Of a stretch of DNA of 64,000 bases, positions 21,430 to 51,089 are shown in pieces. Under the pieces are notes generated by a model. It was not told the DNA's origin. It ran no database searches and saw only the letters and a program-made list of their open reading frames with translations. Numbering within the stretch: the stretch's first letter is position 1; every line of letters starts with the position of its first letter. The position numbers were made by a program, and so were the translations under genes. The stretch is from a bacterium (lineage in GTDB: Bacteria; CLD3; SB21), in the NCBI GenBank assembly GCA_016787925.1, contig JAEUSK010000248.1, forward strand, positions 26,908 to 90,907, given 5' to 3'.

Positions 21430-22434
21430 TTGTTTTGGTATAATGACTGTAGCCGAAAATTGTTAAACGTGAAAAATATACTCGTTTCAGGCCATAATTT
21501 CAAAAAAAAATATACGTTATTTTGTTGTCTGCTGTTTGTTATCCCCGTTTTCACTCTATCGGCTCAAGACAAAACCAGAATGTCATTTGAGGTTAATACC
21601 GTCATCGATCTTAGCGGCGAGGGTATTGGTCAGTTGGAAAACCCGCAATCGCTGTCGGTGAGTTTCATGGGCGATATTTACATCGCCGACACCGGACATA
21701 ATCGTATTGTCAAGCTGGATGCGAAAGGTAATTACGCTAATCACGTCGGCGGATTTGGCTGGAAGAATAACCAATTTGACGCTCCGGTGGACATTTTCGC
21801 CATCGACGGACTAAACATTTACGTTGCTGACCTGAATAATCAGCGCATCCAGCGTTACAGCAAGAAATTAGAATATGTTTCATCATTCGGCGGATCGAAG
21901 CTGACAGAACTCAGTATAGACGCTTCCAGGACATCCAATGAACCGCTTGGGTATCCTTCGGGTATTGCGGTTTCGTCTCAAGGCGACTTATTCTATTCAG
22001 ACAGCGAAAAGGATCAGATCGTAAAAATCAATCGATTCGGAAAAAAAGAAAGTGCATTTGGCGGTTTTTCTGAGGGTAGAGGAACATTAAGAAGTCCGGG
22101 AAAAATATTTGTCACGAGTAGGTTTGTTTACGTGATTGATGAAAATCGGGTTGTCGTTTTCGATTATTATGGTAATTATATCCGCGACGTCGGAATGAGT
22201 GTTTTGAAGAAACCCGCGGACATTACGATCGATAAGAAAGACCGAATTTACGTAGCGGATGCGGAATTGCGAACGGTTGTAGTTTACGATTCGGCGGGAA
22301 ACTTTCTCACGTCGCTTCTGTCCCACGCCTTTGACCGGCCTGTCTCCGTCGATTGTGTTCTTAACAAATTATATGTTCTCGACGGCAAAGCAGCTTCGAT
22401 CATTGTTTTCAATATTCTTGAAAGCGGCGATTAA
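21430..22434 (+). CDS. NHL-repeat beta-propeller protein, secreted
   Basis: The signal peptide is YTLFCCLLFVIPVFTLSAQ. Repeated NHL-like blades occur (IYIADTGHNRIVKLD; IYVADLNNQRIQRY; LFYSDSEKDQIVKI; VYVIDENRVVVFD; IYVADAELRTVVVYD). The start codon is uncertain; TTG or GTG candidates lie at 21430-21469. Confidence 0.65.
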   Translation: MFWYNDCSRKLLNVKNILVSGHNFKKKYTLFCCLLFVIPVFTLSAQDKTRMSFEVNTVIDLSGEGIGQLENPQSLSVSFMGDIYIADTGHNRIVKLDAKGNYANHVGGFGWKNNQFDAPVDIFAIDGLNIYVADLNNQRIQRYSKKLEYVSSFGGSKLTELSIDASRTSNEPLGYPSGIAVSSQGDLFYSDSEKDQIVKINRFGKKESAFGGFSEGRGTLRSPGKIFVTSRFVYVIDENRVVVFDYYGNYIRDVGMSVLKKPADITIDKKDRIYVADAELRTVVVYDSAGNFLTSLLSHAFDRPVSVDCVLNKLYVLDGKAASIIVFNILESGD

Positions 22435-25400
22435 ATGACGCGCTGTATTCATGCGGCCCTACTTATGATGTTATGTCATATTCATTCTGCATCTGCGCAA
22501 GACGAGTCCGATTCATTGTTTACAAAAGTGATCATAGATTCGACGATCAGCCGGCATTTCGAAAACCCGAACTCAATCAACCTATGGACGCGGACGTATT
22601 CCTTTTATGGAGCGGGTGTGGACACGGTGTACAAACTTCCGGACGAACTGATTGCCGTCGAGAGTGAAACGGTCAGCGCGGGCAAGATGCATCTATACCG
22701 AGGCTCCGACTATGTCATACACTACCGCCGAGGTGAAATTCAGTTTTCATCAATCCTTGCTGAAGACCTGGAAATCACGATTCAATACAACATCCTGCCT
22801 TTTAACTTGCGTACAGAATACGCGCACCGTCAAATACAAAATTGGGCCGTCGATGATTCCGTGAGGGTGAGTATCATGACGAGCGGTTTTCAATCTTCGA
22901 CTCCGGCGCAGGATAATCCGTTTGAGTCGTCCCAAATGGTGGGAACGGGGAGCATTACGCGAGGGTTTACTGTCGGCTCCAACCAGGACTTCACATTAAA
23001 TTCAGGTCTGAATGTACAGATATCCGGCAAAATAAGTGACGATGTGACCATTGAAGCATCACTGACCGATGAAAATATTCCGATTCAGCCGGAAGGCAAC
23101 ACGGAAAAACTGCAGGAGATCGATAAAATATTTGTCGAAGTTAATAAAGCCGATAATTACATCGCCACGTTTGGCGATTTTGAGGTGAGTCTGGCAGGAA
23201 CAGAGTTCGGTAATTATTCAAGAAAACTGCAGGGCGTAAGGGGCGCTGTGCGAACCGATGCAGTCACGGCTGACATTGCATTTGCGTCCACCAAAGGTAA
23301 ATTTTCGTCCAATACCCTGGTGATCATTGAAGGTAATCAGGGTCCTTATGCATTGACGGGTCTGAATGGGGAAAGCAATATTCTCGTAATTGCCGGAACG
23401 GAAAAAGTATGGTTAAACGGCGTTCAGCTTAGGCGCGGAGAAGACAATGACTTCGTTATTGACTACAATGCGGGGCAGATCACATTTACACGCAGGCGGT
23501 TGATCACGCCGGAATCGCGAGTTACTGTTGACTTTGAATACGCCGACGATGTTTTTAAGCGCACCACTTTCGCAAGCGGCATTAGAACCAATTGGTTCGA
23601 TCAAAAGATTTCGTTTGGCGGAGTTTTTATCAATGAATCGGACGATAAAAATAATCCCATAAATTTATTTCTTTCCGACCAAACTATCGATTCGTTGTCC
23701 GAAATTGACGATGACCAAATCAACTCGCAGGGCACGACGGTGTATGTTGACGGGGCAAGGCGGGTTGATTTCGGGCGTGGAGCGTATGTCCGGATATTTA
23801 ACCTTTCGGCCAACGACAGTATTTTCCTTTACGTCGGCGCTGACAGTTCAGGAGATTACAATGTGCGGTTCACGGACTTTGGCGCCGGCAACGGCGATTA
23901 TGTTCGCGGTAACATCTTAGGTGAATTCGTTTATGCCGGTAAGAATAGCGGAGCCTTCTTACCTTTGGTAGCATTACCTCTGCCCACACGCACGCAATTG
24001 GCAAGTTTCTTTCTTGAAACGCGGCCGATTAAGAACATGGTATTTGGCAGCGAGGTGGCCTTTTCGACCTTTGATATAAATTCATTTTCACCCGAGGATA
24101 TTAGCGGGAAAGCGTATCATCTGAAAGCTAATATTCAAAAACAAAAAATAGGATGGCATGGGAAGAAGCTGGGTGAATTTGACATGAACGCCCGTATTAG
24201 CCATATTGACAGCACATTTAAGGAAATCGACCGCATCAATGATCCGGAGTTCAATCGGTCATGGAATATTCACGGCACATACGGGGCTCCTTTAAGTTCA
24301 CTGGGCGCAGAAGAGAATCTAAAGGAAATTCATTCGGCGTACAGGCCGGTGGGAGAACTGCAATTTGCGGGATTTTACGGAGACCTTACAAGGGGCAACA
24401 AAGTATTCAGGTCTTCCCGATACGGCGGCGGTGTGCAGGCATCCTTTGATCAATTGCCGCAGGTGAATTATTCCATTGAAGAAATAAATTCAGAGAATCG
24501 AAATTCGTCCGATACATATCGCAGTGATGTGACACGTCAAAGTTTTCTCAGCAGTTATCAGTTGTGGAAAGTGAGACCGGGATTTGATTATGAAGACGAA
24601 ATCGTACGCAATCGTTTTGCCTCCGTCGACTCCGGTTTTGGTACTGCATATTTTACGTACCGTCCGCGTATTGATTTTAACAGGCTTAAGAAAATGCAGT
24701 TCGGTGTTATGCTGGAGACACGTCTTGATGAAAGCAGGAACTCACTGGTGGATTCGCTGGACGGACGGATTTCGACAGCAACGACTCAACGGTATTATTG
24801 GAATATGCTTGATTGGAATAATATCAATGCTACCGTCGAATACGTGCGGCGCCAAAAAGAATATCACGGCAAGTTTCGCACAGTAGAGAATCTTGATAAC
24901 ACATCGCATCTGATCAATTCGGCTTTGGATTACCACCGATGGAATCGCGCGATGACGAGCAGCATCAGTTATCAGGTGTCCGAACAAAGCTTGCAGGATC
25001 GTAAGCTTATTTTTGTTCCGGTGCAGGCGAATACCGGTAACTTCATTCAGGCCGCACGGGACAGTTTTATTCAGGTTCCGCAGGGACAAGGCGACTGGAT
25101 TCAAAGTACGGTACGCGTGGACGGATTTACACCTATCGTGGAAATAAAATTCGGTGTCCGTGTACGATTTGAGTTTTTGAGGTTTTACAAGAATACGGCG
25201 AATAAAGACACTGTCACAGAAGGAAAAGAAGGGGGTCTCACAAGTCTGTTGAAAAAAATGTCCACTGAGACAATTTTCAGAATCGAAGAAAATCAAAAAG
25301 AGCCGGACCTGTCTGTATATTTTATCGATCTGAGAAAGTACCAGAACAACGACAATACGCTGCGCGGCTCGCTCTTTTTCAGGCAGGACGTCTTATCGAC

Positions 25401-26013
25401 GGATAACGAGCGCCGTACGTCGATCAGATTGAGGTATGAACTTCAAAAGAACATATCTGGATTACTGACCGACGGAAATGAACGCAGGCGCAGAGAACTT
25501 GAGAACATACGTATTCGCACCCAGCCGTTTGAAAAAACGGCCTTTGAGAACGAATTAGAATACGAAACAAACCTGAAACGCTCGACCATTTCGGTTTCTG
25601 CATTTAACAGAGATTTTGATTTCTATAAAGTAAAATGGATTCCACAAATGTCGTATAAGCCAATTTACGAAATCGAGTGGATCAATAAAGGGATTCTGAT
25701 TTATTCGAACGACGCGTTCTCACGTCTGACCGCGCGCAGTTTTTCCTATGCGCCCGAACTGATCTATTCATTCAAAAATAAAGGCCGGGCGGCGCTGTCG
25801 TTCGACCTGTCGAGAGTATTTCTTTCGAAAGATATTTTTGTTCCGTTTGAAATTCTGAATGGGTTAAAAAAGGGATGGAACGCAAGCTGGCTGGTGACCA
25901 TGGACTACAGGATCAATAATCACGTATCGGCATCGTTGAATTATTCAGGGAGGAAAGAGCCAAAGCAAGATGTGATTCACCTGGGCAGCGCAGAGTTCAG
26001 AGCGTTTTTCTGA
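22435..26013 (+). CDS. very large (1192 aa) secreted protein, probable outer-membrane beta-barrel/assembly-type protein of unknown family
   Basis: The ATG sits immediately after the upstream TAA, which suggests coupling. The signal peptide is MTRCIHAALLMMLCHIHSASAQ. The sequence is rich in alternating beta-strand patterns and ends in an aromatic residue (...EFRAFF), as outer-membrane beta-barrels typically do. Confidence 0.6.
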   Translation: MTRCIHAALLMMLCHIHSASAQDESDSLFTKVIIDSTISRHFENPNSINLWTRTYSFYGAGVDTVYKLPDELIAVESETVSAGKMHLYRGSDYVIHYRRGEIQFSSILAEDLEITIQYNILPFNLRTEYAHRQIQNWAVDDSVRVSIMTSGFQSSTPAQDNPFESSQMVGTGSITRGFTVGSNQDFTLNSGLNVQISGKISDDVTIEASLTDENIPIQPEGNTEKLQEIDKIFVEVNKADNYIATFGDFEVSLAGTEFGNYSRKLQGVRGAVRTDAVTADIAFASTKGKFSSNTLVIIEGNQGPYALTGLNGESNILVIAGTEKVWLNGVQLRRGEDNDFVIDYNAGQITFTRRRLITPESRVTVDFEYADDVFKRTTFASGIRTNWFDQKISFGGVFINESDDKNNPINLFLSDQTIDSLSEIDDDQINSQGTTVYVDGARRVDFGRGAYVRIFNLSANDSIFLYVGADSSGDYNVRFTDFGAGNGDYVRGNILGEFVYAGKNSGAFLPLVALPLPTRTQLASFFLETRPIKNMVFGSEVAFSTFDINSFSPEDISGKAYHLKANIQKQKIGWHGKKLGEFDMNARISHIDSTFKEIDRINDPEFNRSWNIHGTYGAPLSSLGAEENLKEIHSAYRPVGELQFAGFYGDLTRGNKVFRSSRYGGGVQASFDQLPQVNYSIEEINSENRNSSDTYRSDVTRQSFLSSYQLWKVRPGFDYEDEIVRNRFASVDSGFGTAYFTYRPRIDFNRLKKMQFGVMLETRLDESRNSLVDSLDGRISTATTQRYYWNMLDWNNINATVEYVRRQKEYHGKFRTVENLDNTSHLINSALDYHRWNRAMTSSISYQVSEQSLQDRKLIFVPVQANTGNFIQAARDSFIQVPQGQGDWIQSTVRVDGFTPIVEIKFGVRVRFEFLRFYKNTANKDTVTEGKEGGLTSLLKKMSTETIFRIEENQKEPDLSVYFIDLRKYQNNDNTLRGSLFFRQDVLSTDNERRTSIRLRYELQKNISGLLTDGNERRRRELENIRIRTQPFEKTAFENELEYETNLKRSTISVSAFNRDFDFYKVKWIPQMSYKPIYEIEWINKGILIYSNDAFSRLTARSFSYAPELIYSFKNKGRAALSFDLSRVFLSKDIFVPFEILNGLKKGWNASWLVTMDYRINNHVSASLNYSGRKEPKQDVIHLGSAEFRAFF

Positions 26014-26117: not shown

Positions 26118-27164
26118 CTATTTGGATAACTCGTTTTTAAATTGCGTAATGATGTCAACCGGAGTCGGGTCTGTTTTTCGTACTATTGCCATAAAGTAGC
26201 TCAGCCAATCACCCCGGTAAATTAGCGACATAAATTTGCTGAAGGAATCAGGCCCTTCAGAATACATTTCATATAGCGCCGTTTTTTTTGACAGGATTTT
26301 CTTCAGTATATCGAATCGTTTTTGAATCTGCGGATGATCGCCCGCATCGCGAATCAACATAACCGAAAACGGCGCGCTGGACTGAACGCCATCCCAGCCG
26401 ACAATCTCGTTGTGATTCATTTCAGGAAGGGTATTGGCGAATGCGAGCAGTTTGGCATTCTCGCAAATCTGACCTTTGAATCGAAGTGCGGCGGGAAACA
26501 TTTTTTCTGATGAATAAATTATGACCGGTTGAACGCTCAGGTGTTCCGCCCAGTTCCAAAGTTCATTTCCCGATGGGGATGACCACAATTTTTGTTTCTC
26601 GTTTATCCACGCGATATTTCCGCTGATCAGATTTGCGTCGTGAGATTCCATGAACAAATGTTCCATCATTCTAAACAGAGTGACCAGTGAATATCCTATC
26701 GCCTGACGCGGCTGAAATCCTCCAGGAATCGCGATGTGGGGGATGCTGTTGTTATTTGACAACTCCTTAATGGCGCCACCCGTAGAAATCGTGATTATTC
26801 TTGCGTTGTGCCTTACCGCATCATTAAAAGCGGAAACAGTCTCTTCTGTATTACCGGAATAACTTGACAGGATGACCAGCGTTTTCTCGTTGACATACGG
26901 CGGCAGGGTATAATCGCGGTTAACATTAATAGGAATGGAAAGATGGTCGGAAAAAATTTGTTTAACAAAATCACCGGCAATTGCAGACCCGCCCATACCG
27001 CAGATAACAATATTGCGAACGTCAGCCGCAGAGGTTTTCAAACCGGTCAATTGAGAATAATGATTCGAAATATTATTTTCAGCTGAAAGTAACTGTTCAT
27101 GGAACGACAGCAACACCGTCAGGTAATTTTGTTTGTCGTATGTTTCTATCAGGGACTTATTCAT
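26118..27164 (-). CDS. SIS-domain sugar isomerase (bifunctional phosphoglucose/phosphomannose isomerase-like)
   Basis: ICGMGGSAIAGDF is a SIS nucleotide-binding-like motif. The 348-aa two-SIS-lobe size fits the archaeal/bacterial PGI/PMI family. Confidence 0.6.
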   Translation of the reverse strand: MNKSLIETYDKQNYLTVLLSFHEQLLSAENNISNHYSQLTGLKTSAADVRNIVICGMGGSAIAGDFVKQIFSDHLSIPINVNRDYTLPPYVNEKTLVILSSYSGNTEETVSAFNDAVRHNARIITISTGGAIKELSNNNSIPHIAIPGGFQPRQAIGYSLVTLFRMMEHLFMESHDANLISGNIAWINEKQKLWSSPSGNELWNWAEHLSVQPVIIYSSEKMFPAALRFKGQICENAKLLAFANTLPEMNHNEIVGWDGVQSSAPFSVMLIRDAGDHPQIQKRFDILKKILSKKTALYEMYSEGPDSFSKFMSLIYRGDWLSYFMAIVRKTDPTPVDIITQFKNELSK

Positions 27165-27176
27165 GATACGTTCGAA

Positions 27177-27872
27177 TTAGGACATGAAAGGTTTGACAAT
27201 TTGAAGAAAATTCTGCGGGGCCAAATTAGTAAGCGGTTGATCCCACGCGACTTTTCCTTTGTCAAATACGACTGCTCGTTTGGCAATACCGGCAATGCGT
27301 TCAATGTCGTGAGTCACAACGAGAATACAATTGCCGGCTTGATGATAGTCGAGCAGAATGGCATCAAGAAACTCACAGGCTTTTTGATCAAGGCCGGTAT
27401 AGGGTTCGTCCAGCAGTAATATTTTCGGATTGTGAAGAAGCGCTCGGGCGATCGACAATCGTTGCTGCATGCCGCGTGAAAAACGGCGAACCGATTCATC
27501 AGCCCTATGCGCGAGGCCAACTTTCTCTAACAGGTTTTGAATTCGTTCGGCCGGATTTTCCACATCGTAGAACTTAGCATAAAATGATAGATTTTCTTTT
27601 GCCGTCAGGTCGCTGTAAATGTACGTTTGATGAGAAACCATACCCATCTGCTGTAAGATTACAAAGGAGTCTTTGCGGATATTATATCCATTGATGTGTA
27701 CTTCACCGCCGCTGGGCTTCAGAAGAGTAGCGATAATTTTCAGCAAGGTCGTCTTTCCGGCTCCGTTGCGTCCGAGAATAGCTATGAAATCGTTTGCGCC
27801 TATTTTCAGATCGAGGTTATCGAGGGCGCGGAATCGTCCGTAGAGTTTAGTGATATTAATGATATCGATCAT
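27177..27872 (-). CDS. ABC transporter ATP-binding protein (CcmA-like by size and context)
   Basis: Walker A is GRNGAGKTTLLK, the signature is FSRGMQQRLSIARAL, Walker B is ILLLDEPYTGLD, and the H-loop is VTHD. The product is 231 aa with no fused permease. Confidence 0.8.
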   Translation of the reverse strand: MIDIINITKLYGRFRALDNLDLKIGANDFIAILGRNGAGKTTLLKIIATLLKPSGGEVHINGYNIRKDSFVILQQMGMVSHQTYIYSDLTAKENLSFYAKFYDVENPAERIQNLLEKVGLAHRADESVRRFSRGMQQRLSIARALLHNPKILLLDEPYTGLDQKACEFLDAILLDYHQAGNCILVVTHDIERIAGIAKRAVVFDKGKVAWDQPLTNLAPQNFLQIVKPFMS

Positions 27873-27929
27873 AATGAGGTGATGCCGTCATTGAGTGTAA
27901 TTTACAGCACAGCCATCGTAGCTCAACCA

Positions 27930-29141
27930 CTAGAGGGCATGAATATCTTCCGCCGCCTTTCGCAATTGCGATTTCAGGCTATCACGGCGTTTCTGATATG
28001 TTGGGGAATCTATTTTATTGTCATGGAATGTATCGTCCAGTTGAGCGATCTGCTGTGCCAACGTGTCCCGCTTCTTTAGCATGGCGTTGCGTTGTTGATT
28101 GTTTTGTTTCTTCTGGCCTACAGCCGGTTGATACGGTTTTGCAGCGGCTTTGCGGTTTAACCCAAAAAACAATGCGAATGACAAAATGCTCAGCATAAGA
28201 AATATCCATACGAAAGATTTTTTCTGAACCATGTTTTCTGATGCCGCGATCGTCTCGTTATTTTGTTCTGTCTGGCGAGTGCCGCCGCCGGAAAATGTCA
28301 TTCCAACCATATTGTTGGCTTTAATGGCGGTTGCAGCATAAATCGAAAAATTATTTGCCTCCATGCGTTCATCGTGAACGTGGGTCAATTTATCGGAAAG
28401 CACTTCAATGTCCTTAGGGGAAACAAACACATTGCATTCTAGTATATCGTAATACCATTGCGACTTTAATGCAAACGTATTCGCGGAATAATCCGCGGTA
28501 TACGTGACCTGTATCTGGGTCACGCCGGGCCGCAATGGTTGATTAATGCCCATGCCGTCCTCATACGCAAAAGGCGCGGCAGCAACCGCCATACTCTGAT
28601 TGTGGGAAGTCTGCGCATTCTGGAATTGAGTTCGTTCCGGCAGCTTAAACCGGAATGTCGGTTTATTAATATCCGAAAGCACGTAAGCTGTTTGTCCTAA
28701 ATTATTAATTTCAAAGGTCTCTTGAATTTCAAGTTGATTGCCGTTACGAAGAACAACCATGTGCGGAATACGCACGGAAATATTTTGCCATCGGTCCGTC
28801 GCTTCATACACAACCAGATCGACATTGTAATTTCTATTTTCCTGAATCATCAGGTTTTGCGTATATACGACGCCCTTGTACGACGCGCGCAGAAGGTATG
28901 GCGCATTGGGCAGAGGAGGTATATTTGAGAATTCATAATCGGAAACCTGATCGAATTGCTTTACGGTTTCGAGGCCTTGCCCTGTTTTTACGAGCACAAC
29001 CCAATCTGCGGTAACTTTCTTGTTAATCGTTTTATCGTAGATTTTGCCGATGATCGAGGCGCCGCTTTGTGCATGGACGTCAAACGTATACAGCGCTGCG
29101 GTAAGAAAGAAGAAAGTAAGTATGTAAACCCGACGTATCAT
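27930..29141 (-). CDS. hypothetical single-pass membrane protein (periplasmic beta-rich domain, TM, cytoplasmic coiled coil)
   Basis: The signal peptide is MIRRVYILTFFFLTAALYTFDVHAQ. An internal TM reads FVWIFLMLSILSFALFFGL. The C-terminus is charged and helical. Confidence 0.5.
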   Translation of the reverse strand: MIRRVYILTFFFLTAALYTFDVHAQSGASIIGKIYDKTINKKVTADWVVLVKTGQGLETVKQFDQVSDYEFSNIPPLPNAPYLLRASYKGVVYTQNLMIQENRNYNVDLVVYEATDRWQNISVRIPHMVVLRNGNQLEIQETFEINNLGQTAYVLSDINKPTFRFKLPERTQFQNAQTSHNQSMAVAAAPFAYEDGMGINQPLRPGVTQIQVTYTADYSANTFALKSQWYYDILECNVFVSPKDIEVLSDKLTHVHDERMEANNFSIYAATAIKANNMVGMTFSGGGTRQTEQNNETIAASENMVQKKSFVWIFLMLSILSFALFFGLNRKAAAKPYQPAVGQKKQNNQQRNAMLKKRDTLAQQIAQLDDTFHDNKIDSPTYQKRRDSLKSQLRKAAEDIHAL

Positions 29142-29162
29142 GATATCATCCGTTTGTTTAAG

Positions 29163-29642
29163 TTAGTCCTTAACCAGTTTAGTTCCGCATTCGGAACAAA
29201 ATTTGGCCTCTATGTTGTTTTCGCGCCCGCATTGCGAACAGGAAAGTATTGCCGGTTGTGATTCTATTACGATTTCGCCCTGCGCAACTTTTATTTTTCG
29301 CTTTGCAGCTATCAATTTTTCCAGATAATCATCCGTGATTTTACCGTTACCGGCGGGAGATTCGCCCCCTCCGATATCGATCTGTCGGATCACATCCGCC
29401 ACTTCTGCCATGGATTGTTTACGCAATGATCGATAATCTTCTTCAGCCATTTTACCGATGCCGAATTCAAAATCAAGATCCTTGATGTCCATGTAAATCT
29501 TGTTCTTTTTTGAAATGAGCGCATCCAGCTTGGCCGTCTTTTCATCGCGCTGGTCAAATGCAATATAGTCTTTTGCCAGAAGGGGTTTTAAAACGAATGC
29601 AAGTGCGATCAATCCTGTTGAGATGATAATAAAACTTAACAT
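29163..29642 (-). CDS. membrane-anchored zinc-ribbon protein
   Basis: The N-terminal TM reads MLSFIIISTGLIALAFVL. The C-terminal Cys4 residues are in CSQCGRENNIEAKFCSECGTKL. Confidence 0.45.
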   Translation of the reverse strand: MLSFIIISTGLIALAFVLKPLLAKDYIAFDQRDEKTAKLDALISKKNKIYMDIKDLDFEFGIGKMAEEDYRSLRKQSMAEVADVIRQIDIGGGESPAGNGKITDDYLEKLIAAKRKIKVAQGEIVIESQPAILSCSQCGRENNIEAKFCSECGTKLVKD

Positions 29643-29662
29643 ACTGTCATTTCTCCAAATCG

Positions 29663-30199
29663 TTATTCCAATTTCTTTAAGTCTTCTTCGATGCGCCGGT
29701 CGACATCGGACGATGGCATCGGGGTTGAATCGTTCTTTGCCGAAGTCGTGTTGACGCGCGTGGCTCTTTTAACTACAACGAAGAGAACCACGGAGAATAG
29801 TGCGAACAGAATGAACGGCAGGACCCATGCCATGAGGTCAAATCCTGTGGTGCCTGGTTGTGACAAAATCACCTTGCCAAAAGGCCCTTTCCCGCGAAAA
29901 GTGTATTCATTCAGGAAATAATCCATTATTTCTGTTCTTGTTTTTTGAGCGAGAATCATCTCCTCGATCTTCTCGCGCATGGGAACAGCCGACGGGCAAT
30001 TAACGTGTCCGCATTGTCCCAGCACGAGATTGCATCCGCATTGACACATAAGTTCTTCGGAAATCTCTGAAAATAAAACGGCCTGCTCGCCGCTGAGTTT
30101 GGACGAATGGGCTGATCCTTGGGCGTAAGTGATTCCAACAAAGCTAACCAGAGCGAAACTGACTAAGAAAATAAGCCATATCCAACTATATTTTTTCAC
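29663..30199 (-). CDS. ccmH: cytochrome c-type biogenesis protein CcmH/NrfF-like
   Basis: The motif ..MCQCGCNLVLGQC..EEMILAQKTRTEIMDYFLNEY resembles the CcmH LRCxxC...GxSxxEIxDxxVxRYG pattern. I chose the GTG at 30199 because it is preceded by AAAGGA and followed by a signal peptide; the ORF track's start at 30298 would overlap ccmF by 113 bp. Confidence 0.65.
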   Translation of the reverse strand: MKKYSWIWLIFLVSFALVSFVGITYAQGSAHSSKLSGEQAVLFSEISEELMCQCGCNLVLGQCGHVNCPSAVPMREKIEEMILAQKTRTEIMDYFLNEYTFRGKGPFGKVILSQPGTTGFDLMAWVLPFILFALFSVVLFVVVKRATRVNTTSAKNDSTPMPSSDVDRRIEEDLKKLE

Positions 30200-32222
30200 C
30201 GATATTTTCCTTTCTGCGAACTTTAACTTCCTTACGGTCTTCCGTATAAGCAGGCAGCAAACAAATGATAGTTCCGAATACCAATATTTCTGTGCCAAAC
30301 CATATCCATGAGACCAGCGGGTTCACATAAATCTGCAGCACGGCTTTTCTCTCAGTTTGATCCAGCCCGGTAAATACCACATACAAATCTTCCTGAATCG
30401 TCTTATACAATGCGACTTCAGTGGTGGGCTGCTGGCTGGCTTTATACATTCGGTATTCCGGTTTTAACTCATGCACTTTGCGTCCGTCTTTGTAAACACC
30501 GAGAACACTGAAAGAAGATTCATAATTAGCGTTCGATTCAAAACCGATCTTGTCGCATTTCAGCGTGTAGTCTTTGACCTGAAATGATTGCCCTTCGCCC
30601 AATTCCGTCTTGGTTTCGAAGTTGAATATGACTCCGGTAATGCCGACGAAAATGATTACCATGGCAAAGTGAACGATATAGCCGCCGTATCGTGGTTTGT
30701 TCTTCCACGTCAAATTTTTAAGCGCGATGAGAAAATTTTCTTTCGTTGAATGCATTCGGGCCGCCGTGCCTTTTACGAATTCAATGACAATAACGGCAGT
30801 AACAAATATGGACAATGTGAATGAAATTAAGCCGTAAAGATGCTGGGTCAGAAAAATAAACACAATGATACCGCCGGCTAATGCGATGAGGCTCGGATAG
30901 AGAAATGCCTTTCTTAAACTTGCCAGCGAAGTTTTTCGCCATGCAAAAAGAGGACCTGCGCCGGTAAGAAAAAGTAAGAATAATGCAATCGGAACATTCA
31001 CCTTATTGAAAAAAGGAGCTCCAACAACAATCTTTTCTCCGGTAACTGCTTCCGAAATCACAGGAAATATGGTTCCCCATAGAACGGCAAAACAGGAAAT
31101 CAATAATACAAGATTGTTGAATAAGAAACTGCTTTCGCGTGACAATGCGGAATCGAGCTTTCCTTCGCTCTTCAGTTGGGGAAGCCTGTATATGACTAAC
31201 GCAACCGAAAACGCAAGGGTAATAATGATGAACGTCATGAAGAATATGCCGATGGATCCTTCGGCAAATGCGTGAACGGACGAGACTACGCCCGATCGTG
31301 TTAAAAAAGTGCCAAAAAGGCAGAGGAGATACGTTGCGATGATCAGCGTTACATTCCAAACCTTGAACATATTCTTCTTTTCCTGGATCATCACGGAGTG
31401 GAGAAAAGCCGTTCCGGTAAGCCACGGCATCAATGATGCGTTTTCAACAGGATCCCAAGCCCAATATCCGCCCCAGCCGAGTTCCTCATAAGCCCACCAT
31501 CCGCCCATCATGATGCCGGCGCTTTGGAACAGCCATGCGAAAAGTGTCCAGCGACGTGACAATTTGATCCATTGGTCATCTAATTGTCCACTCAGTAACG
31601 CGGCAATAGCAAATGCAAACGGAATGACGAATCCGACATATCCAAAAAATAAAGTCGGCGGGTGAATGATCATTGCCGGATGCTGCAGTAAGGGATTCAA
31701 TCCGCGGCCGTCAACTGGAAAAAAGGGCGTAGTCGAGCCGTCACCATGAACGGTTACAAGCTCACTGAATGGATTTGCCGACCACAGGTTGAGCGACAGA
31801 AAAAATATTTGGCTGATCATCGTGGTCATAATGACATAAGGAATCAATTCCCCATGTGTGTTGCGGTACCTATACGTCACGGCAAAACTGTAGCCGGCAA
31901 GCAGCAGGGACCACAAAAGTAATGAACCGGCCTGTCCTGCCCAAAACGTAAATTTAAAAAAGTATGGCAGATCGTGGTTGGTATATGAGGCAACGTATTC
32001 GATATTCATGTTGCTGGTAACCAGCAAATAGATGAGACAGAACGACGCAAACACCACACTTACGAATACCGTATAAACGGAGCGTTGAGCAACGCGGATC
32101 AGATCGCCTCGTTTTTGTCTAATGCCCCACACCGATGTTATCACGGCAAATGCGGCCATTACGATAGCCAAAATGAGGGCGAAATTACCGATGGGCCCGG
32201 CATATCTATCTAGAAATTCCAT
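30186..32222 (-). CDS. ccmF: cytochrome c-type biogenesis protein CcmF/NrfE family (haem lyase)
   Basis: The WWD domain reads WGGYWAWDPVENASLMPWL. The 678-aa product has about 15 TM helices and conserved His residues. Confidence 0.85.
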   Translation of the reverse strand: MEFLDRYAGPIGNFALILAIVMAAFAVITSVWGIRQKRGDLIRVAQRSVYTVFVSVVFASFCLIYLLVTSNMNIEYVASYTNHDLPYFFKFTFWAGQAGSLLLWSLLLAGYSFAVTYRYRNTHGELIPYVIMTTMISQIFFLSLNLWSANPFSELVTVHGDGSTTPFFPVDGRGLNPLLQHPAMIIHPPTLFFGYVGFVIPFAFAIAALLSGQLDDQWIKLSRRWTLFAWLFQSAGIMMGGWWAYEELGWGGYWAWDPVENASLMPWLTGTAFLHSVMIQEKKNMFKVWNVTLIIATYLLCLFGTFLTRSGVVSSVHAFAEGSIGIFFMTFIIITLAFSVALVIYRLPQLKSEGKLDSALSRESSFLFNNLVLLISCFAVLWGTIFPVISEAVTGEKIVVGAPFFNKVNVPIALFLLFLTGAGPLFAWRKTSLASLRKAFLYPSLIALAGGIIVFIFLTQHLYGLISFTLSIFVTAVIVIEFVKGTAARMHSTKENFLIALKNLTWKNKPRYGGYIVHFAMVIIFVGITGVIFNFETKTELGEGQSFQVKDYTLKCDKIGFESNANYESSFSVLGVYKDGRKVHELKPEYRMYKASQQPTTEVALYKTIQEDLYVVFTGLDQTERKAVLQIYVNPLVSWIWFGTEILVFGTIICLLPAYTEDRKEVKVRRKENIGEKI

Positions 32223-32250
32223 GAAATTCCTTTCATTTTATACGGTTACG

Positions 32251-32262
32251 TATAGCGCTATA
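32251..32262. promoter_or_regulatory. perfect 12-bp palindrome tatagcgctata about 29 bp upstream of ccmF start
   Basis: Seen in the sequence. Its position suits an operator or promoter-overlapping regulator site for the ccm operon. Confidence 0.3.
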
Positions 32263-32336
32263 TAACTATTTTTACAAGCAAAAAAAATGATATTCATCAT
32301 GTTTTATCAATGAAATTTTGTAATAAATTTGTAATG

Positions 32337-34067
32337 TCAGCCTTTCCATAAGATCTCATATACTGTCACCGGTTCTGCTATGCCTTTCAATACGACCTGT
32401 TCAATGGCGGAAGCGATTTCTTTGTTCGGCAGAAGATCATAAGTTGACTGACTGATGATGATTTGTCCCTTCTTTGCAACACTGCAGAGACGATTGGCAA
32501 TATTTACTGTTTCTCCAATGACCGTATATTCCAGCCGCTTATTTGAACCGATATTTCCTACAATCACATCGCCCGTATTAATGCCGATACCGATGTGAAT
32601 CGGATCTTTTCCTTCGATTTTACGCTGGAAATTAAATTTTTCGACGGCGCGTTGCATTTGCACGGCGGCATTTATCGCACGCATAAAAAAATCGTCATAG
32701 TGAACCGGGGCGCCAAAAAAAGCCAGAATTGCGTCGCCGATGAATTTGTCTAACGTACCTCCGTAACGGTCAATAATATCGATACTTTCGTCGAAATGCG
32801 AATTAAGTAAATTGATCAGCGCCTGCGGGTCCATGCCGCGCGACATAGGCGTAAAACCGCGAATGTCAGTAAACAAAACGCTCAACATGGCTTTTTCGCC
32901 TTTCAAAATGCCATCGATGGACTGTTCCGCCAATACTTTTTTTGCGACATCCGGGGACAGATATTTCCCGAAGAGTCCTTCGACGCGTTTCTTTTGTTTC
33001 AGCCCTTTGGTCATCTCATTAAACGACGAGGCCAAAAGCCCTATCTCGTCTTTGCTTTTTACTTTTACTTCGAAATCTAAGTTACCTGCTGCAATTTCCC
33101 GCGTCGCGCTTGCAAGTAAGGCTACAGGTCGAGCTACGCCATGTGAAATAATGATGCCGATAAATAATGCAATGGCAGCAACGCCCAATCCGATAATGAG
33201 CATCAGTTTCTGCGAATCCACGAGCGGTTCGAGCGCTTTGTCGAGGGAATTGAAAAAGACGTAAGTTGCTATAACTTTCTTGTCTTCGCCTTCGGTTCCT
33301 GGCGATGCAAATACCGGAGAAGCTACACCCAAATATTTTTCTCCGCCGACCGTAAATTCAAATGCGGAACTGGATGTTTTCTTGATCATCGCATGATCCA
33401 GTTCGGATTTATGCTGCTGGAATTGGTCAAACAATTCTTGCCTCTTATCATGCATGTTGGTAGAGACAATCTTGTTGCTGACCAGGAATGCGATATGGCT
33501 GTTGGTTACCTTTGAAATGACTGCGGCTACCGTGTCCGTGACTTCGTAGCCCAATGCGATTGCGCCGAGAACCTGATCGTTGGCAATGGTGGGCGATGCG
33601 GCCACGCGGATCAATTTACCGTTTTCCTCCCAAAAACCGCCGTTATCGATGCCGCTGAGGGCGCCGCTAATCTCAGGTCTCTGCGATAGATTAATGTTCG
33701 ATTTCATTTCAGTTCCGACGTAGGCCAAAACCTCTCCGGATGGACTTAGCGCAACGAAGATGTCCGAATTAAAACCATTTATCCTGTTGGTTTCATCAAG
33801 ACCCTGCTGTACCGTGGCTTTATCGCCGGTACTGAGCTGAGCGGCAAATTTGGGGTTGTCGGACACACTGCGAGATTGCAGTATAAGCTGACTAAAATAG
33901 CTTTCGTTAAATTCCTCGTACGTGACATTGCTGCGTGAAAGCCGGTCGACAATGTCGCTTTTAATGCGTTTTGCCAACTGCACGGATACGAAGAAATAAG
34001 ATGTTCCGGCTATAATCAATATAACCAGAACAAGCAGGATAAGCTTGTCTCTGAATTTTAGAGTCAT
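32337..34067 (-). CDS. class III adenylate/guanylate cyclase with N-terminal TM, periplasmic sensor domain and HAMP
   Basis: The HAMP region is followed by VLFTDIRGFTPMS...IGDAILAFFGAP...GINTGDVIVGNIGS, which are CYC-domain motifs. Confidence 0.8.
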   Translation of the reverse strand: MTLKFRDKLILLVLVILIIAGTSYFFVSVQLAKRIKSDIVDRLSRSNVTYEEFNESYFSQLILQSRSVSDNPKFAAQLSTGDKATVQQGLDETNRINGFNSDIFVALSPSGEVLAYVGTEMKSNINLSQRPEISGALSGIDNGGFWEENGKLIRVAASPTIANDQVLGAIALGYEVTDTVAAVISKVTNSHIAFLVSNKIVSTNMHDKRQELFDQFQQHKSELDHAMIKKTSSSAFEFTVGGEKYLGVASPVFASPGTEGEDKKVIATYVFFNSLDKALEPLVDSQKLMLIIGLGVAAIALFIGIIISHGVARPVALLASATREIAAGNLDFEVKVKSKDEIGLLASSFNEMTKGLKQKKRVEGLFGKYLSPDVAKKVLAEQSIDGILKGEKAMLSVLFTDIRGFTPMSRGMDPQALINLLNSHFDESIDIIDRYGGTLDKFIGDAILAFFGAPVHYDDFFMRAINAAVQMQRAVEKFNFQRKIEGKDPIHIGIGINTGDVIVGNIGSNKRLEYTVIGETVNIANRLCSVAKKGQIIISQSTYDLLPNKEIASAIEQVVLKGIAEPVTVYEILWKG

Positions 34068-47263: not shown

Positions 47264-47513
47264 TTCAATGATTCGAAAGAATTGGGAAAAGCGGAACATG
47301 AACCAAAATTATTTACATGTTAATGCGGGCCGGCTCAAAACACAAGTAAATCTTAAGTGAATTTCGTAACGTCATGAAGCCCGGAGTACACTCAGTCGGA
47401 TATTTTGTGCTTGAGTTCGTTCGACGATTCATGTATTTTAAAAAGGAATATATTCTTGCATGTCGTCGTTGTATACTCATTCACTCTTGTCACATTCCAT
47501 TGCTAAATTTGTT

Positions 47514-48272
47514 ATGCAAAAAATTGTTTTTTGCGGAAGGTTAGTTCTAATTCTCGCGTTTTTTTCCGGCTGCGATAAGGAGAAGGTTAGCGAAGACGCT
47601 CAGATCACGCTTGGCCGGGAATTATTTCATGACACGCGGTTCTCCTCTTCTGGCGAGCAGAGTTGCGCAACTTGCCATCCCGACGGCCACACAGATAATC
47701 GAAAATGGCATTTCCCTGCAATTCACGACTCATCCAGCGGCAAGCCCGATTCGTTAAAAACACTTACGCTCTGGGGTATTGCGCAAACGGGGCCGCCGTA
47801 TTTATGGTCGGGAAGAACGACAGGACTTTACGAAATTACGAAACTTTACACAGATACGATAATGGGCGGCCTGGCGAGCCATGAGGAACTTGAAGCTTTG
47901 GTGGCGTATCAGAAATCTTTAGTTGCTCCTTCAAATCCTTGGATTCGGAACGACGGCGAACTGACGATGGAACAACAAAGAGGAAAAAAAATTTATGAAA
48001 CAAAGGGTTTCTGTTCTCCGTGCCATCCCGCTCCAACGGGCACCAATGGTTTTGTCAAGGATATCGGTACCGGCGGTTTTTTCAAAACGCCAAGTCTTAT
48101 TGCAATGTATTCTAAATCGGATTTTTTTCATGATGGCCGAGCTAAGACGCTACGCGATGTTATTCATTTTTATATTGCCGATCCGGAGAATAAGCTGCGG
48201 GACCATGATTTCATAATTAATTTAAGTGATCAAGAAATTAGTGACCTAATCGAATATTTGAAATCATTCTAA
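47514..48272 (+). CDS. di-haem c-type cytochrome, cytochrome c peroxidase (CCP/MauG)-like, lipoprotein
   Basis: The lipobox is FFSGCDKEK. There are two CxxCH motifs (SCATCHP and CSPCHP). The N-terminal LGRELFHDTRFSSSG...CATCH pattern is CCP-like, but the 252-aa product is shorter than canonical CCPs. Confidence 0.7.
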   Translation: MQKIVFCGRLVLILAFFSGCDKEKVSEDAQITLGRELFHDTRFSSSGEQSCATCHPDGHTDNRKWHFPAIHDSSSGKPDSLKTLTLWGIAQTGPPYLWSGRTTGLYEITKLYTDTIMGGLASHEELEALVAYQKSLVAPSNPWIRNDGELTMEQQRGKKIYETKGFCSPCHPAPTGTNGFVKDIGTGGFFKTPSLIAMYSKSDFFHDGRAKTLRDVIHFYIADPENKLRDHDFIINLSDQEISDLIEYLKSF

Positions 48273-48278
48273 GATAAA

Positions 48279-49064
48279 ATGAGTATGAAACACATAATGT
48301 ACAAGTTAATGATCGGAACGGTCTTAGTTGCTTCCCTTTGTTGTGTTGCATGTGACAAAGAGAAACCAGGTGAAGACCCGCAAATTGCTTTTGGGAGACA
48401 GTTATTCAACGATACCAAGTTTGACAATATTGCCGGTCAAACTTATAGCTGTGCAACTTGCCATCCGGGTGGCGATATGGATCATAAAAAATGGTTATTG
48501 CCGCCTTTATCCACAGATTCAGTTGCCACGCCGACGTTATTTGGGGTTAGCGATACACCTCCTTATTTGTGGTTTGGTGAAGGAGGAAGTGATATTAAGG
48601 CCGTTACGCGCGTAGTCATAGACAGCGTTTTGCATGGCTCCGCGACGGAGGAAGAACTGGACGCACTTGCCGCCTATCAGCTGTCGCTGATTGTACCGGC
48701 GAATCCATGGAGAAATTCCGACGGCTCGCTGACAATGCAACAGCAGAAAGGAAAGGCGGTTTTTGAAGGGCAGGGCAAATGCGGTGTCTGTCATTCAGGG
48801 GAAGCGCTTACGGGAAAGTTTAAAATTCAAATTAAAAAATTGAATCCGCAAGTCGACGTGCCTTCGCTTCGCTGGGTATTTGCCACGGCGCCATATTTCA
48901 GAGATCATTCTGCGGCCACATTGTGGAAAGTTGTTAGTCATTACGCGGATTCGGTTCAGACTGGACAAATGACAACATGGGGATGGAATACACTGGGAAT
49001 TTACGATATTAGTCTAACTGAACAGGAAAAGACTGATTTAATCGAATATTTAAAAACGTTATAG
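48279..49064 (+). CDS. di-haem c-type cytochrome, CCP-like lipoprotein (tandem paralog)
   Basis: The lipobox is LCCVACDKEK. The two haem-binding motifs are CATCHP and CGVCHS. FGRQLFNDTKF is shared with the upstream paralog. The gap to that paralog is 6 bp. Confidence 0.7.
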   Translation: MSMKHIMYKLMIGTVLVASLCCVACDKEKPGEDPQIAFGRQLFNDTKFDNIAGQTYSCATCHPGGDMDHKKWLLPPLSTDSVATPTLFGVSDTPPYLWFGEGGSDIKAVTRVVIDSVLHGSATEEELDALAAYQLSLIVPANPWRNSDGSLTMQQQKGKAVFEGQGKCGVCHSGEALTGKFKIQIKKLNPQVDVPSLRWVFATAPYFRDHSAATLWKVVSHYADSVQTGQMTTWGWNTLGIYDISLTEQEKTDLIEYLKTL

Positions 49065-49096
49065 TATTAAACGTGCCATACATCAGGATTCGCACT

Positions 49097-50320
49097 ATGA
49101 AAAAGACATTGACAGGCCTTCTTTTGATATTAACCTTAGCGCCATGCGAAAGTTTGTGGGCGCAAGAGGAGTCTTTGCCGGATGAGTTTGGTGAAATGAC
49201 GGAGACGTCGGACAACACTACCGGCATTGGCGGTATTGTTGATGCGGCCACTACTTTCGGAAATAAGCCACATCTTAACGCCAATACGCTGAATGATAAC
49301 AATTTTAATAATATCCGCGCGCTCTTGAATTTTCGATTTCAGCACAAAGAAAAATTACGGGCGGATGTAGAAGTTTTGTTTGACGATGCTTCGAAAGAAA
49401 AGGTTCGACTTCAGGGCGCCTTCATTACCATCTTTGATGTGCCGAACGAGAAAATTAATTTTATGGTTGGGAAAATACCCAATCTTTTCGGAAATTTTGG
49501 TAAACGTGAATTCTCAGACGTCAACCCTCTGATCGGTCAGCCGCTCATGCGTCAATATCGAACCAGTCTGGACTGGAATAATCTGTGGAATAATCAAGAA
49601 CAACTCATTTTAAAGGAAAAAAGGAAAGCACATAAAGGGAACTTACCCGTTGATGTATTAGCCGGGGCAACGCCAACCGTTTACGACGCACGTTGGGATT
49701 TTGGTATAGAGTTATTTGGAAATATTTCGTTTGTGGACTATCAAATAGCCGTCACTGAAGGGTCCATTTCAAATCCTGATGCGAACCAAAACAAGGGAAA
49801 GCAATTCTTAGGTCGTTTAGGTTTTGCACCCGTTGCGGGATTAAAGTTTGGTTTTTCGGGCGCAAGCAATCCTTATTTGTCAGGCGCCGATCCTCAAAGG
49901 CTGCTGGAAGAGGGCAAAGGAAAGGGCGAATATCGGCAAATGGCTTATGGGGCGGACTTGGAGGCTAGTTACCGTTATCTAATCGTTTTCAGTGAGTTCG
50001 TTAAAAGCACCTGGGATGCGTCGGTGGATGAGGGGGAATTATCCAATTGGAGTTGGTATGTGGATGCTAAATATAAGCTGCATCCCAAACTCTACGTCGC
50101 AGCGCGGTATGATATGATGAATTTCAGCAAGATCAAAGATCCTGCGACGGCCTCAAATGAATCCTGGGATTTTGACGTGAAACGATATGAAGTTGGGTTG
50201 GGATTTAGAATTACTGCTGACGCAACGCTTAAGTTAGTCGAGCAGTGGACTGTTTTTGATGAAAAGTCTAATATTAAGAGCGTACGGTTCACAGCAGCAC
50301 AATTGTCTGTTCCATTTTAA
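49097..50320 (+). CDS. putative outer-membrane porin-like beta-barrel protein
   Basis: The signal peptide is MKKTLTGLLLILTLAPCESLWAQ. The sequence has alternating amphipathic strands and ends in AAQLSVPF, with the terminal Phe typical of outer-membrane proteins. Confidence 0.5.
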   Translation: MKKTLTGLLLILTLAPCESLWAQEESLPDEFGEMTETSDNTTGIGGIVDAATTFGNKPHLNANTLNDNNFNNIRALLNFRFQHKEKLRADVEVLFDDASKEKVRLQGAFITIFDVPNEKINFMVGKIPNLFGNFGKREFSDVNPLIGQPLMRQYRTSLDWNNLWNNQEQLILKEKRKAHKGNLPVDVLAGATPTVYDARWDFGIELFGNISFVDYQIAVTEGSISNPDANQNKGKQFLGRLGFAPVAGLKFGFSGASNPYLSGADPQRLLEEGKGKGEYRQMAYGADLEASYRYLIVFSEFVKSTWDASVDEGELSNWSWYVDAKYKLHPKLYVAARYDMMNFSKIKDPATASNESWDFDVKRYEVGLGFRITADATLKLVEQWTVFDEKSNIKSVRFTAAQLSVPF

Positions 50321-50348
50321 CTGATTGAGATTTCGGAGGAATAAAAAT

Positions 50349-51089
50349 ATGAAAATTGTAATTTTGGTATTTGGTTTTGCAACGGCGCTTATTTTTACGC
50401 TTCTGGGCGAGGACGTCAAGTTCTTTCAAATCATGTCGGATGCCGGTTTGGTTAAATACTCTGAATCGGAATCCATTGAAAACCGGGCAGCTTTGCCTGC
50501 GGAAGGAAAAATCACCGGGAAAGTGTTTGTCAGCAAGTCCGGAGGGACTGCGGCCAGGTCTGCCAAGGGATTATATGGAAAAAGTTCCTCGCGGTTGACT
50601 AAGAGCGCCGGTATCGATCAGAGAGCCATTGTCTTTATCGTGAAAGCGCCCGGCAAATATCCGCTACCGCAAAGCAGGCCGGTGATGCGCCAGAAAAACA
50701 TAGCCATTGTGCCGCATGTTTTGCCTGTTTTACTTGGTACGACCGTTGACTTTCCGAACGAAGATGAGATTTATCACAATATTTTTTCACTTTCAGATAC
50801 TAAAACTTTTGACCTCGGCCGGTATTCCAAAGGAAAATCGAAATCGGTGACGTTTAACACATTAGGTACGGTCAAGGTTTTCTGCGATATTCATTCCCAG
50901 ATGGGCGGAGTTATTCTGGTGCTGCAAAATCCGTATTTTACCACTGTCGGCATTGACGGCAGCTATAGTATCAGCGGTGTTCCTCCGGGAAATTATGAAG
51001 TTGCCGCATGGCAGGAAAACGGGGGAAGCAAAATTCAAAAAATAACCGTTAGGAGCGGGGAACAGGTTGATCTTGATTTTTCATTCTGA
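50349..51089 (+). CDS. carboxypeptidase-regulatory-like (CarboxypepD_reg) domain protein, TM-anchored
   Basis: GGAGGA lies upstream. The N-terminus has a TM helix. The C-terminus GSYSISGVPPGNYEVAAWQENG is the typical Cna-B/CarboxypepD_reg motif. Confidence 0.5.
   Translation: MKIVILVFGFATALIFTLLGEDVKFFQIMSDAGLVKYSESESIENRAALPAEGKITGKVFVSKSGGTAARSAKGLYGKSSSRLTKSAGIDQRAIVFIVKAPGKYPLPQSRPVMRQKNIAIVPHVLPVLLGTTVDFPNEDEIYHNIFSLSDTKTFDLGRYSKGKSKSVTFNTLGTVKVFCDIHSQMGGVILVLQNPYFTTVGIDGSYSISGVPPGNYEVAAWQENGGSKIQKITVRSGEQVDLDFSF

Follow-up and report, generated by a model that had tools for sequence, protein, structure and literature searches.

Gene content of the locus

This work concerns a group of cytochrome c maturation (ccm) genes in a stretch of bacterial DNA of 64,000 nucleotides (nt) (GTDB lineage Bacteria; CLD3; SB21; GenBank assembly GCA_016787925.1, contig JAEUSK010000248.1, positions 26,908 to 90,907 of the forward strand), and in particular two proteins encoded among the recognizable Ccm components. 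We refer to the whole stretch as the window and give positions within it. On the minus strand, and in transcription order, the group comprises ccmF (30186-32222), for a haem lyase subunit of 678 amino acids (aa); ccmH (29663-30199), which starts with GTG and encodes a variant CcmH of 178 aa; a gene for a 159-aa zinc-ribbon membrane protein (29163-29642); a gene for a 403-aa protein (27930-29141); and ccmA (27177-27872), for an ATP-binding cassette (ABC) ATPase of 231 aa. Hereafter, ZnI denotes the 159-aa zinc-ribbon family and X400 the ~400-aa family. A sixth gene, for a bifunctional phosphoglucose/phosphomannose isomerase (PGI/PMI, SIS), follows on the same strand (26118-27164; NF006426, 311 bits with a cut-off of 295; PF10432, 2.6e-43).

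The original prediction, made from the sequence alone, had described six co-oriented genes, and our check of the open reading frames (ORFs) returned the same coordinates and the same gaps of -14, 20, 21, 57 and 12 nt, the start of ccmH overlapping the end of ccmF by 14 nt. The window proteins are identical to MBL7996329-MBL7996333, named by the Prokaryotic Genome Annotation Pipeline (PGAP) as 'heme ABC exporter ATP-binding protein CcmA', 'hypothetical protein JNM05_13250' (X400), 'zinc-ribbon domain-containing protein' (ZnI), CcmH and 'heme lyase CcmF/NrfE family subunit'. The predicted lack of further ccm genes was borne out: neither tblastn with a complete Chloroflexota ccm set nor Pfam scans of essentially all other large ORFs revealed ccmB, ccmC, ccmD or ccmE in the window, and the same Pfam scans found no ccsA/resB, ccdA/dsbD or thioredoxin gene there. 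The description of the operon as non-canonical is likewise supported.

A probable general-purpose haem lyase with a variant CcmH

The window CcmF matches CcmF_C (PF16327) at 2.5e-67 and Cytochrom_C_asm (PF01578) at 2.9e-40, and aligns over its full length with Thermus thermophilus CcmF (PDB 6ZMQ; E 2e-94). In System I, the WWD domain and the conserved histidines of CcmF accept haem from holo-CcmE. The WWD segment of the window protein, LGWGGYWAWDPVENAS, is identical in T. thermophilus CcmF, and the histidines in its HPP, FLHS, SVHAF and VHFA segments align to identical histidines in 6ZMQ; following published work on CcmF, we take these four to be the functional histidines, two flanking the WWD domain and two in transmembrane (TM) helices for haem b. 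Its identity to the CcmF encoded in a complete Chloroflexota ccm cluster is 45%. In a neighbour-joining tree of CcmF, the clade of the window branches off deeply and on its own, none of the loci fetched providing a close sister.

A set of CcmF-like and CcmH-like genes without ccmBCDE beside them recalls the NrfEFG-type dedicated lyase, and this is how the original prediction had read it. Such a reading does not fit our data. CcmF scores below the NrfE models (TIGR03145, 431.5 bits with a cut-off of 927.3; NF007691, 348.9 bits with a cut-off of 394), no multihaem nrfA gene lies nearby, and the cluster has no tetratricopeptide repeat (TPR) gene that could stand for NrfG. It does have ccmA, unlike the NrfEFG arrangement. 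Moreover, the nearest homologues of this CcmF outside the clade are found in full ccmE-F-H-...-A-B-C-D clusters, and the homologous clusters of other phyla are complete, general Ccm systems.

The ccmH product matches PF03918 (9.4e-14; 51.3 bits, cut-off 25) and has a hydrophobic segment near its C-terminus, as expected for a C-terminally anchored CcmH. It carries CQCGC (ELMCQCGCNLVLGQC) instead of the canonical CxxC redox motif (LRCxxC), and the CxCxC/CxCGC form recurs in related clusters, where 59 of 85 CcmH ORFs have it and contig ends truncate many of the remainder. The window protein is 33% identical to the Chloroflexota CcmH. In addition, the CxCGC motif is accompanied by two further conserved cysteines (in the window, CQCGCNLVLGQCGHVNC).

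With 143 bits, the ATPase clears the cut-off (131.6) of TIGR01189, the equivalog model for CcmA, while its 145 bits against a second CcmA model, NF010061, lie under the cut-off of 195. It is 44% identical (2e-58) to the Chloroflexota CcmA, whose gene directly precedes ccmB-ccmC. The window ccmA has no adjoining ccmB, the PGI/PMI gene coming next, and ccmA is retained at this place in every locus of the clade.

ZnI and X400 share a CcmI-N-like module

ZnI has a single N-terminal TM helix, a highly conserved cytoplasmic helical motif (in the window, IKDLDFEFGIGKMAEEDYRSLRK) and a C-terminal four-cysteine zinc ribbon (Zn_Ribbon_1, 4.6e-07). The region that we describe as CcmI-N-like spans about nt 29358-29642 and the zinc ribbon about nt 29172-29246. 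Across 67 members of the family, the invariant residues are K54, L56, F58 and the four cysteines. The window protein is 30% identical to a Chloroflexota orthologue (tblastn E 1e-13), and this orthologue matches TIGR03142, the model of the CcmI N-terminal domain, at 2.4e-06 and 27.8 bits, just under the cut-off of 29.3. The same model is matched by 47 of the 67 ZnI members at E<=0.01.

The AlphaFold2 model of X400 (mean predicted local distance difference test score, pLDDT, 83) consists of a signal peptide, two periplasmic beta-sandwich domains (a transthyretin-like one at aa 28-111 and a second beta domain at aa 121-284), a TM helix (aa 304-328) and a cytoplasmic helical hairpin (aa 343-402), which is again CcmI-N-like; the C-terminal module corresponds to nt 27933-28232. 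The hairpin carries a nearly invariant motif, L-x(6)-L-D-D-x-F-x(9)-Y-x(3)-R-x(3)-K. Family members match CarboxypepD_reg in 70 of 116 cases and TIGR03142 in 28 of 116 (E<=0.01), and none of their Pfam or NCBIfam matches is to a dedicated family model. Profiling the two proteins with hidden Markov models (HMMs), as the original prediction had proposed, returned a zinc ribbon for ZnI and family-level matches to TIGR03142, while the window X400 itself matched no Pfam or NCBIfam model at E<=0.01. The family is large: a profile search of 1.84 billion representatives, clustered at 50% identity, found 6014 clusters at E<=1e-3, of which 856 reach E<=1e-30; nearly all are 360-430 aa long and matched over their full length.

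Two X400 proteins, from loci L053 and L055, bear an N-terminally fused monohaem cytochrome c domain, which places the N-terminal part of X400 in the periplasm. These proteins (L053 5382-6923 and L055 1289-2830) are 513 aa long, with a CVRCH cytochrome c domain ahead of the beta-sandwiches, and come from one low-GC lineage. Another variant, P0164 (661 aa), carries the X400 periplasmic module as a tandem duplicate. A vicinal cysteine pair, MxCC, is present in the second periplasmic domain of 47 of 161 X400 members (for example residues 194-195 of the protein encoded at L004 10001-11167). These are the only periplasmic cysteines in the X400 members inspected, the clade of the window is without them, and the pair may serve in redox chemistry or contact haem in the Chloroflexota-type subfamily.

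The N-terminal module of ZnI and the C-terminal module of X400 align with each other in hhalign with a probability of 98.2% (E 4.8e-14, 94 columns), a profile-profile score that helical TM segments may inflate, and the HMMs of the two modules cross-match reciprocally. Because of these matches, we conclude that, as far as sequence comparison can tell, ZnI and X400 carry the same CcmI-N-like module, made of an out-to-in TM helix followed by the cytoplasmic motif LDxxF-x-G-x(6)-Y-x(3)-R.

A natural fusion unites the two families. In P0163 (686 aa), a ZnI with two zinc ribbons is joined to X400 through a second TM helix, so that the order is TM, motif, zinc ribbons, TM, beta domains, TM, motif; its gene sits between a ccmH/thioredoxin pair and a ccmD-like gene. 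The fusion establishes a topology of TM helix, cytoplasmic loop, TM helix, periplasmic domain, TM helix and cytoplasmic helix. A second candidate fusion, L060, was discarded as an over-extended ORF in GC-rich DNA, where two genes lie in different frames.

Canonical CcmI is a subunit of CcmFHI and an apocytochrome chaperone, built of two TM helices with a cytoplasmic loop between them, followed by a periplasmic domain (PMC3884852). This layout within one protein is found neither in ZnI, which has one TM helix, nor in X400, which has a signal peptide and one TM helix; P0163 alone shows the TM, loop, TM arrangement. Moreover, neither ZnI nor X400 gave a TPR match in Pfam, the model shows only beta structure in the periplasmic portion of X400, and canonical TPR-type CcmI is seen in none of these clusters.

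An accessory pair conserved with ccmF and ccmH

A scan of genome contigs with the X400 alignment, using a clade-specific search pattern, gave seven loci, all of the same clade, and the relatives are metagenome-assembled genomes (MAGs) labelled 'uncultured Bacteroidota bacterium'. The order cyclase gene, ccmF, ccmH, ZnI, X400, ccmA is constant in every relative whose locus was read, from 88% down to 29% X400 identity, and the cluster always stops after ccmA, with PGI/PMI usually next. Since the same order is kept over this range of identity, the ccmA-terminated arrangement is old and stable. The original prediction had treated the order as one of six genes. The order from ccmF to ccmA stands, while the sixth member does not: PGI/PMI follows ccmA in L001, L003, L005 and L016 but is replaced by an aldolase gene in L097. 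As PGI/PMI is also missing from ccm clusters outside the clade, we rejected it as a ccm component.

The same pair is found in other phyla. A Chloroflexota MAG carries ccmE-ccmF-ccmH-[141-aa zinc-ribbon]-[388-aa]-ccmA-ccmB-ccmC-ccmD beside haem biosynthesis genes, and its 388-aa protein is an X400 homologue with 24% identity. This ccmE-F-H-ZnI-X400-A-B-C-D order is also present in many metagenome contigs, often with start and stop codons overlapping by 4 nt. Scanning metagenomes with the ZnI alignment confirmed 313 loci, of which 80 were kept and annotated with local HMMs, and these 80 are almost all in ccm contexts. Wherever CcmE was detected in a ZnI-bearing locus, it was of the cysteine type (24/24; CPSKY, CPSRY and variants). 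In L035 (5011-6000) and L079 (815-1405), a second ZnI-like gene lies upstream of ccmE.

One could argue that ZnI and X400 are unrelated passengers of the cluster, for instance a surface (or adhesin-like) protein together with a small zinc-ribbon regulator. Their annotation, merely 'hypothetical protein' and 'zinc-ribbon domain-containing protein', would allow it, and CarboxypepD_reg-like domains and zinc ribbons are generic. We regard this as extremely improbable, as they keep their place in the cluster in different phyla and their start and stop codons overlap there, the confirmed loci lie almost entirely in ccm contexts, both proteins contain the CcmI-N-like module, and they are fused to each other inside a ccm cluster. 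The two proteins instead form a conserved accessory set that travels with ccmF and ccmH, as the original prediction had suspected. In the literature library that was searched in full text, no paper describes this set or connects the ZnI or X400 family with cytochrome c maturation.

Probably a split cluster rather than a reduced system

The lack of ccmB, ccmC, ccmD and ccmE could mean that the system itself is reduced. The clade would then live without CcmB, CcmC, CcmD and CcmE, with an NrfEFG-like, stand-alone or dedicated CcmF/CcmH lyase, and with ZnI, X400 and the orphan ATPase handling both export and delivery of haem. Consistent with this, none of the four genes lies in the window or within +/-10 kb of the cluster in the clade loci fetched, the arrangement is stable within the clade, and a search seeded with the Chloroflexota CcmC did not recover a CcmC of the clade among the best 120 of its 5088 matches, all 120 being Dehalococcoidales-like. 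We judge the chance of a clade CcmC appearing among those 120 to be below about 10%, because the CcmF tree puts the clade on a deep separate branch.

Several lines of evidence speak against such a reduction. Outside the clade, ZnI and X400 share one operon with CcmE, CcmB, CcmC and CcmD, ccmA following X400 in 18 of 22 loci and ccmB following ccmA in 15 of 17, which makes the pair an addition to these components rather than their replacement. The proposal in the original prediction that ZnI, X400 and the ATPase substitute for CcmB, CcmC, CcmD and CcmE is therefore not upheld. In addition, ZnI and X400, with one TM helix apiece, are unable to make up an ABC permease, CcmF retains both its WWD domain and the histidine segments that align to Thermus CcmF, and the NrfE model is far from being matched. 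Finally, the cluster is broken at different places in other lineages: in L084, divergent genes come after F-H-ZnI-X400-A, while L053 and L055 have ccmC-D-E-F-ZnI-X400, with no ccmH detected and ccmA/B elsewhere. We consider a genuinely reduced system highly unlikely, and we give very little credence to the corresponding idea that a minimal CcmF-CcmH-ZnI-X400-CcmA set matures cytochromes c by a haem route without the CcmE chaperone or CcmC.

The ending of the cluster after ccmA is thus most likely a matter of gene arrangement. The ccmB, ccmC, ccmD and ccmE genes of the clade are likely located elsewhere in the genome, because an intact ccmA is retained across a deeply diverged clade, because the single-TM proteins ZnI and X400 cannot supply the permease, because CcmF keeps its CcmE-accepting features, and because ccm clusters are split differently in other lineages.

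A probable CcmI-like role for ZnI and X400

We propose that the cluster is the haem-ligation half, plus CcmA, of a System I*-type Ccm in which the ZnI/X400 pair probably does the job of CcmI. CcmF and the variant CcmH with its CQCGC motif would form the haem lyase. ZnI and X400 would pair through their CcmI-N-like modules and dock onto CcmF/CcmH in the membrane, where the periplasmic beta-sandwich domains of X400 could hold unfolded apocytochrome c at the lyase, in place of a TPR domain. Both the formation of this complex and the binding of apocytochrome are predictions from sequence and structure models. The zinc ribbon of ZnI may contact a cytoplasmic partner, candidates being CcmA or the secretion machinery. 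CcmABCD would load haem onto a Cys-type CcmE, which would pass it to CcmF.

We also considered that ZnI and X400 act on the haem-export side, regulating or scaffolding CcmAB(CD), for example with the zinc ribbon touching CcmA. It is tempting to think so, since their genes lie between ccmH and ccmA, both cytoplasmic modules could reach an ATPase, and in the clade of the window the pair remains with ccmA while ccmB/C/D/E presumably lie elsewhere. Downstream of ZnI comes X400 in 41 of 55 evaluable metagenome loci, and ccmA directly in six. However, the steadiest neighbour of ZnI is on the other side: ccmH (55) or ccmF (10) lies upstream in 65 of 68 evaluable loci. The pair stays with ccmF in L053 and L055, where ccmA/B are elsewhere, and the order in L072 and L096 is H-G-F-ZnI. 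Moreover, both proteins share a module whose homologue, the N-terminal domain of CcmI, belongs to a partner of CcmFH. We therefore regard an export-side function as unlikely, though better placed than the passenger and reduced-system explanations.

Some of our data weigh against a CcmI-like role within a complete system. First, the window's own ZnI and X400 give no TIGR03142 match at E<=10, so that the link to CcmI runs through orthologues and profile comparison, the latter subject to the inflation mentioned above. Second, CcmB, CcmC, CcmD and CcmE of the clade were seen nowhere, and the best 120 matches of the CcmC-seeded search were exclusively Dehalococcoidales-like proteins. Third, in L019, L029 and L068 ZnI is followed directly by ccmA while X400 lies upstream of ccmE, which makes a role alongside the ABC module possible. 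Lastly, the best Foldseek matches of the X400 model are to ribophorin I/Ost1, with agreement in fold and domain order at a TM-score of ~0.27; this likeness is at fold level only, with ~10% identity, and the N-domains of M1 aminopeptidases score as well. Pfam Ribophorin_I is absent from the list of 25 Pfam families matched by most X400 members. We treat the resemblance of the overall X400 layout to this oligosaccharyltransferase subunit as an analogy and a lead.

Sequences upstream of ccmF and neighbouring genes

A perfect 12-bp palindrome, TATAGCGCTATA, occurs once (32251-32262) and lies 28 nt ahead of the start codon (ATG) of ccmF. The original prediction had pointed to it, and its existence and position upstream of ccmF are as claimed. 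Nevertheless, perfect 12-nt palindromes are at chance level in the window (20 observed, compared with 16.4 +/- 4.2 in shuffles), and an alignment of the upstream regions shows that this one is not conserved in L001, L003 and L005; on both grounds, it was ruled out as a regulatory site. A different element (32287-32300), in which the inverted repeat ATGA-N6-TCAT precedes a run of T, lies in a conserved block between the cyclase gene and ccmF. Besides the window, eight of the ten clade loci scanned carry it upstream of ccmF (L001 6849, L003 6856, L005 6820, L007 6843, L008 1400, L011 6827, L012 1500 and L013 6842), whereas loci in which the cyclase gene directly adjoins ccmF (L016 and L097) lack it. 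The repeat could be a site for a Crp/Fnr-type regulator or a weak terminator. In L005, a Crp-family regulator gene lies just downstream of the cluster.

The cyclase gene itself (32337-34067, minus strand) encodes a dCache-HAMP adenylate/guanylate cyclase (Guanylate_cyc, 3e-29; HAMP, 2e-13) and is the co-oriented upstream neighbour of ccmF in L001, L003, L005, L016 and L097. Because the gap shrinks to 4 nt in L016 and 1 nt in L097, this spacing suggests co-transcription and possibly that the maturation of cytochromes c is under the control of cyclic nucleotides.

Apart from two tandem genes for CCP_MauG-like dihaem cytochromes (47460-49064), with two CXXCH motifs apiece, the window contains no genes for c-type cytochromes. 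The two cytochromes are likely substrates of the maturation system, and their genes are followed, within 47460-51089, by genes for a 415-aa protein without a Pfam match and a CarboxypepD_reg-containing protein. On the other side of PGI/PMI, the gene at 22435-26013 encodes a 1192-aa protein with no Pfam match and a signal-peptide-like N-terminus, whose C-terminus (...AEFRAFF) resembles that of an outer-membrane beta-barrel. It adjoins a gene for an NHL-repeat protein (21430-22434), a pairing that is kept in L001 and L003.

Relation to known systems and implications

System I* is the variant of Ccm with a cysteine-type CcmE (Allen et al. 2006, Goddard et al. 2010, reviewed in PMC3601427). Chloroflexi have this system, and about a third of such systems keep CcmH, according to the same 2011 review. 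The clusters described here resemble System I* in CcmF, in CcmA and, among the related clusters, in CcmB, CcmC, CcmD and a CPSKY/CPSRY-type CcmE (24/24). They differ from it in the zinc-ribbon protein, the ~400-aa beta-sandwich protein and the CxCGC form of CcmH, none of which features in the review (PMC3601427), and in the clade of the window the cluster is cut off after ccmA.

The variant table of that review gives TPR-type CcmI and NrfG as the sole apocytochrome-handling partners (PMC3601427). Similarly to CcmI/CycH of Rhodobacter capsulatus and Pseudomonas aeruginosa, the C-terminal half of E. coli CcmH, and NrfG, the ZnI/X400 pair would be a membrane-anchored accessory of CcmF/H. Members of both families match TIGR03142, and with CcmI/CycH the pair has in common a gene position beside ccmH and, in the P0163 fusion, the layout of TM helix, cytoplasmic loop, TM helix and periplasmic domain. 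In contrast to CcmI/CycH, X400 has two beta-sandwich domains and no TPR domain, the function would be split over two one-TM proteins, ZnI adds a cytoplasmic zinc ribbon, and the periplasmic domain of X400 precedes the CcmI-N-like module rather than coming after it.

What we rate as new is a System I* whose CcmH is of the CxCGC type and whose CcmI-like accessory module consists of two proteins and lacks TPRs. For annotators, our analysis provides two new family definitions, together with the caution that split ccm clusters in MAGs should not be read as reduced systems, while for experimenters it offers a compact candidate complex. To our knowledge, the way in which unfolded apocytochrome c is kept at the CcmF/H lyase and the actual role of CcmI are essentially unstudied in System I*, and the pair described here bears on both. 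With ~6000 X400 clusters and 313 ZnI loci, these families point to a widespread alternative to TPR-type CcmI.

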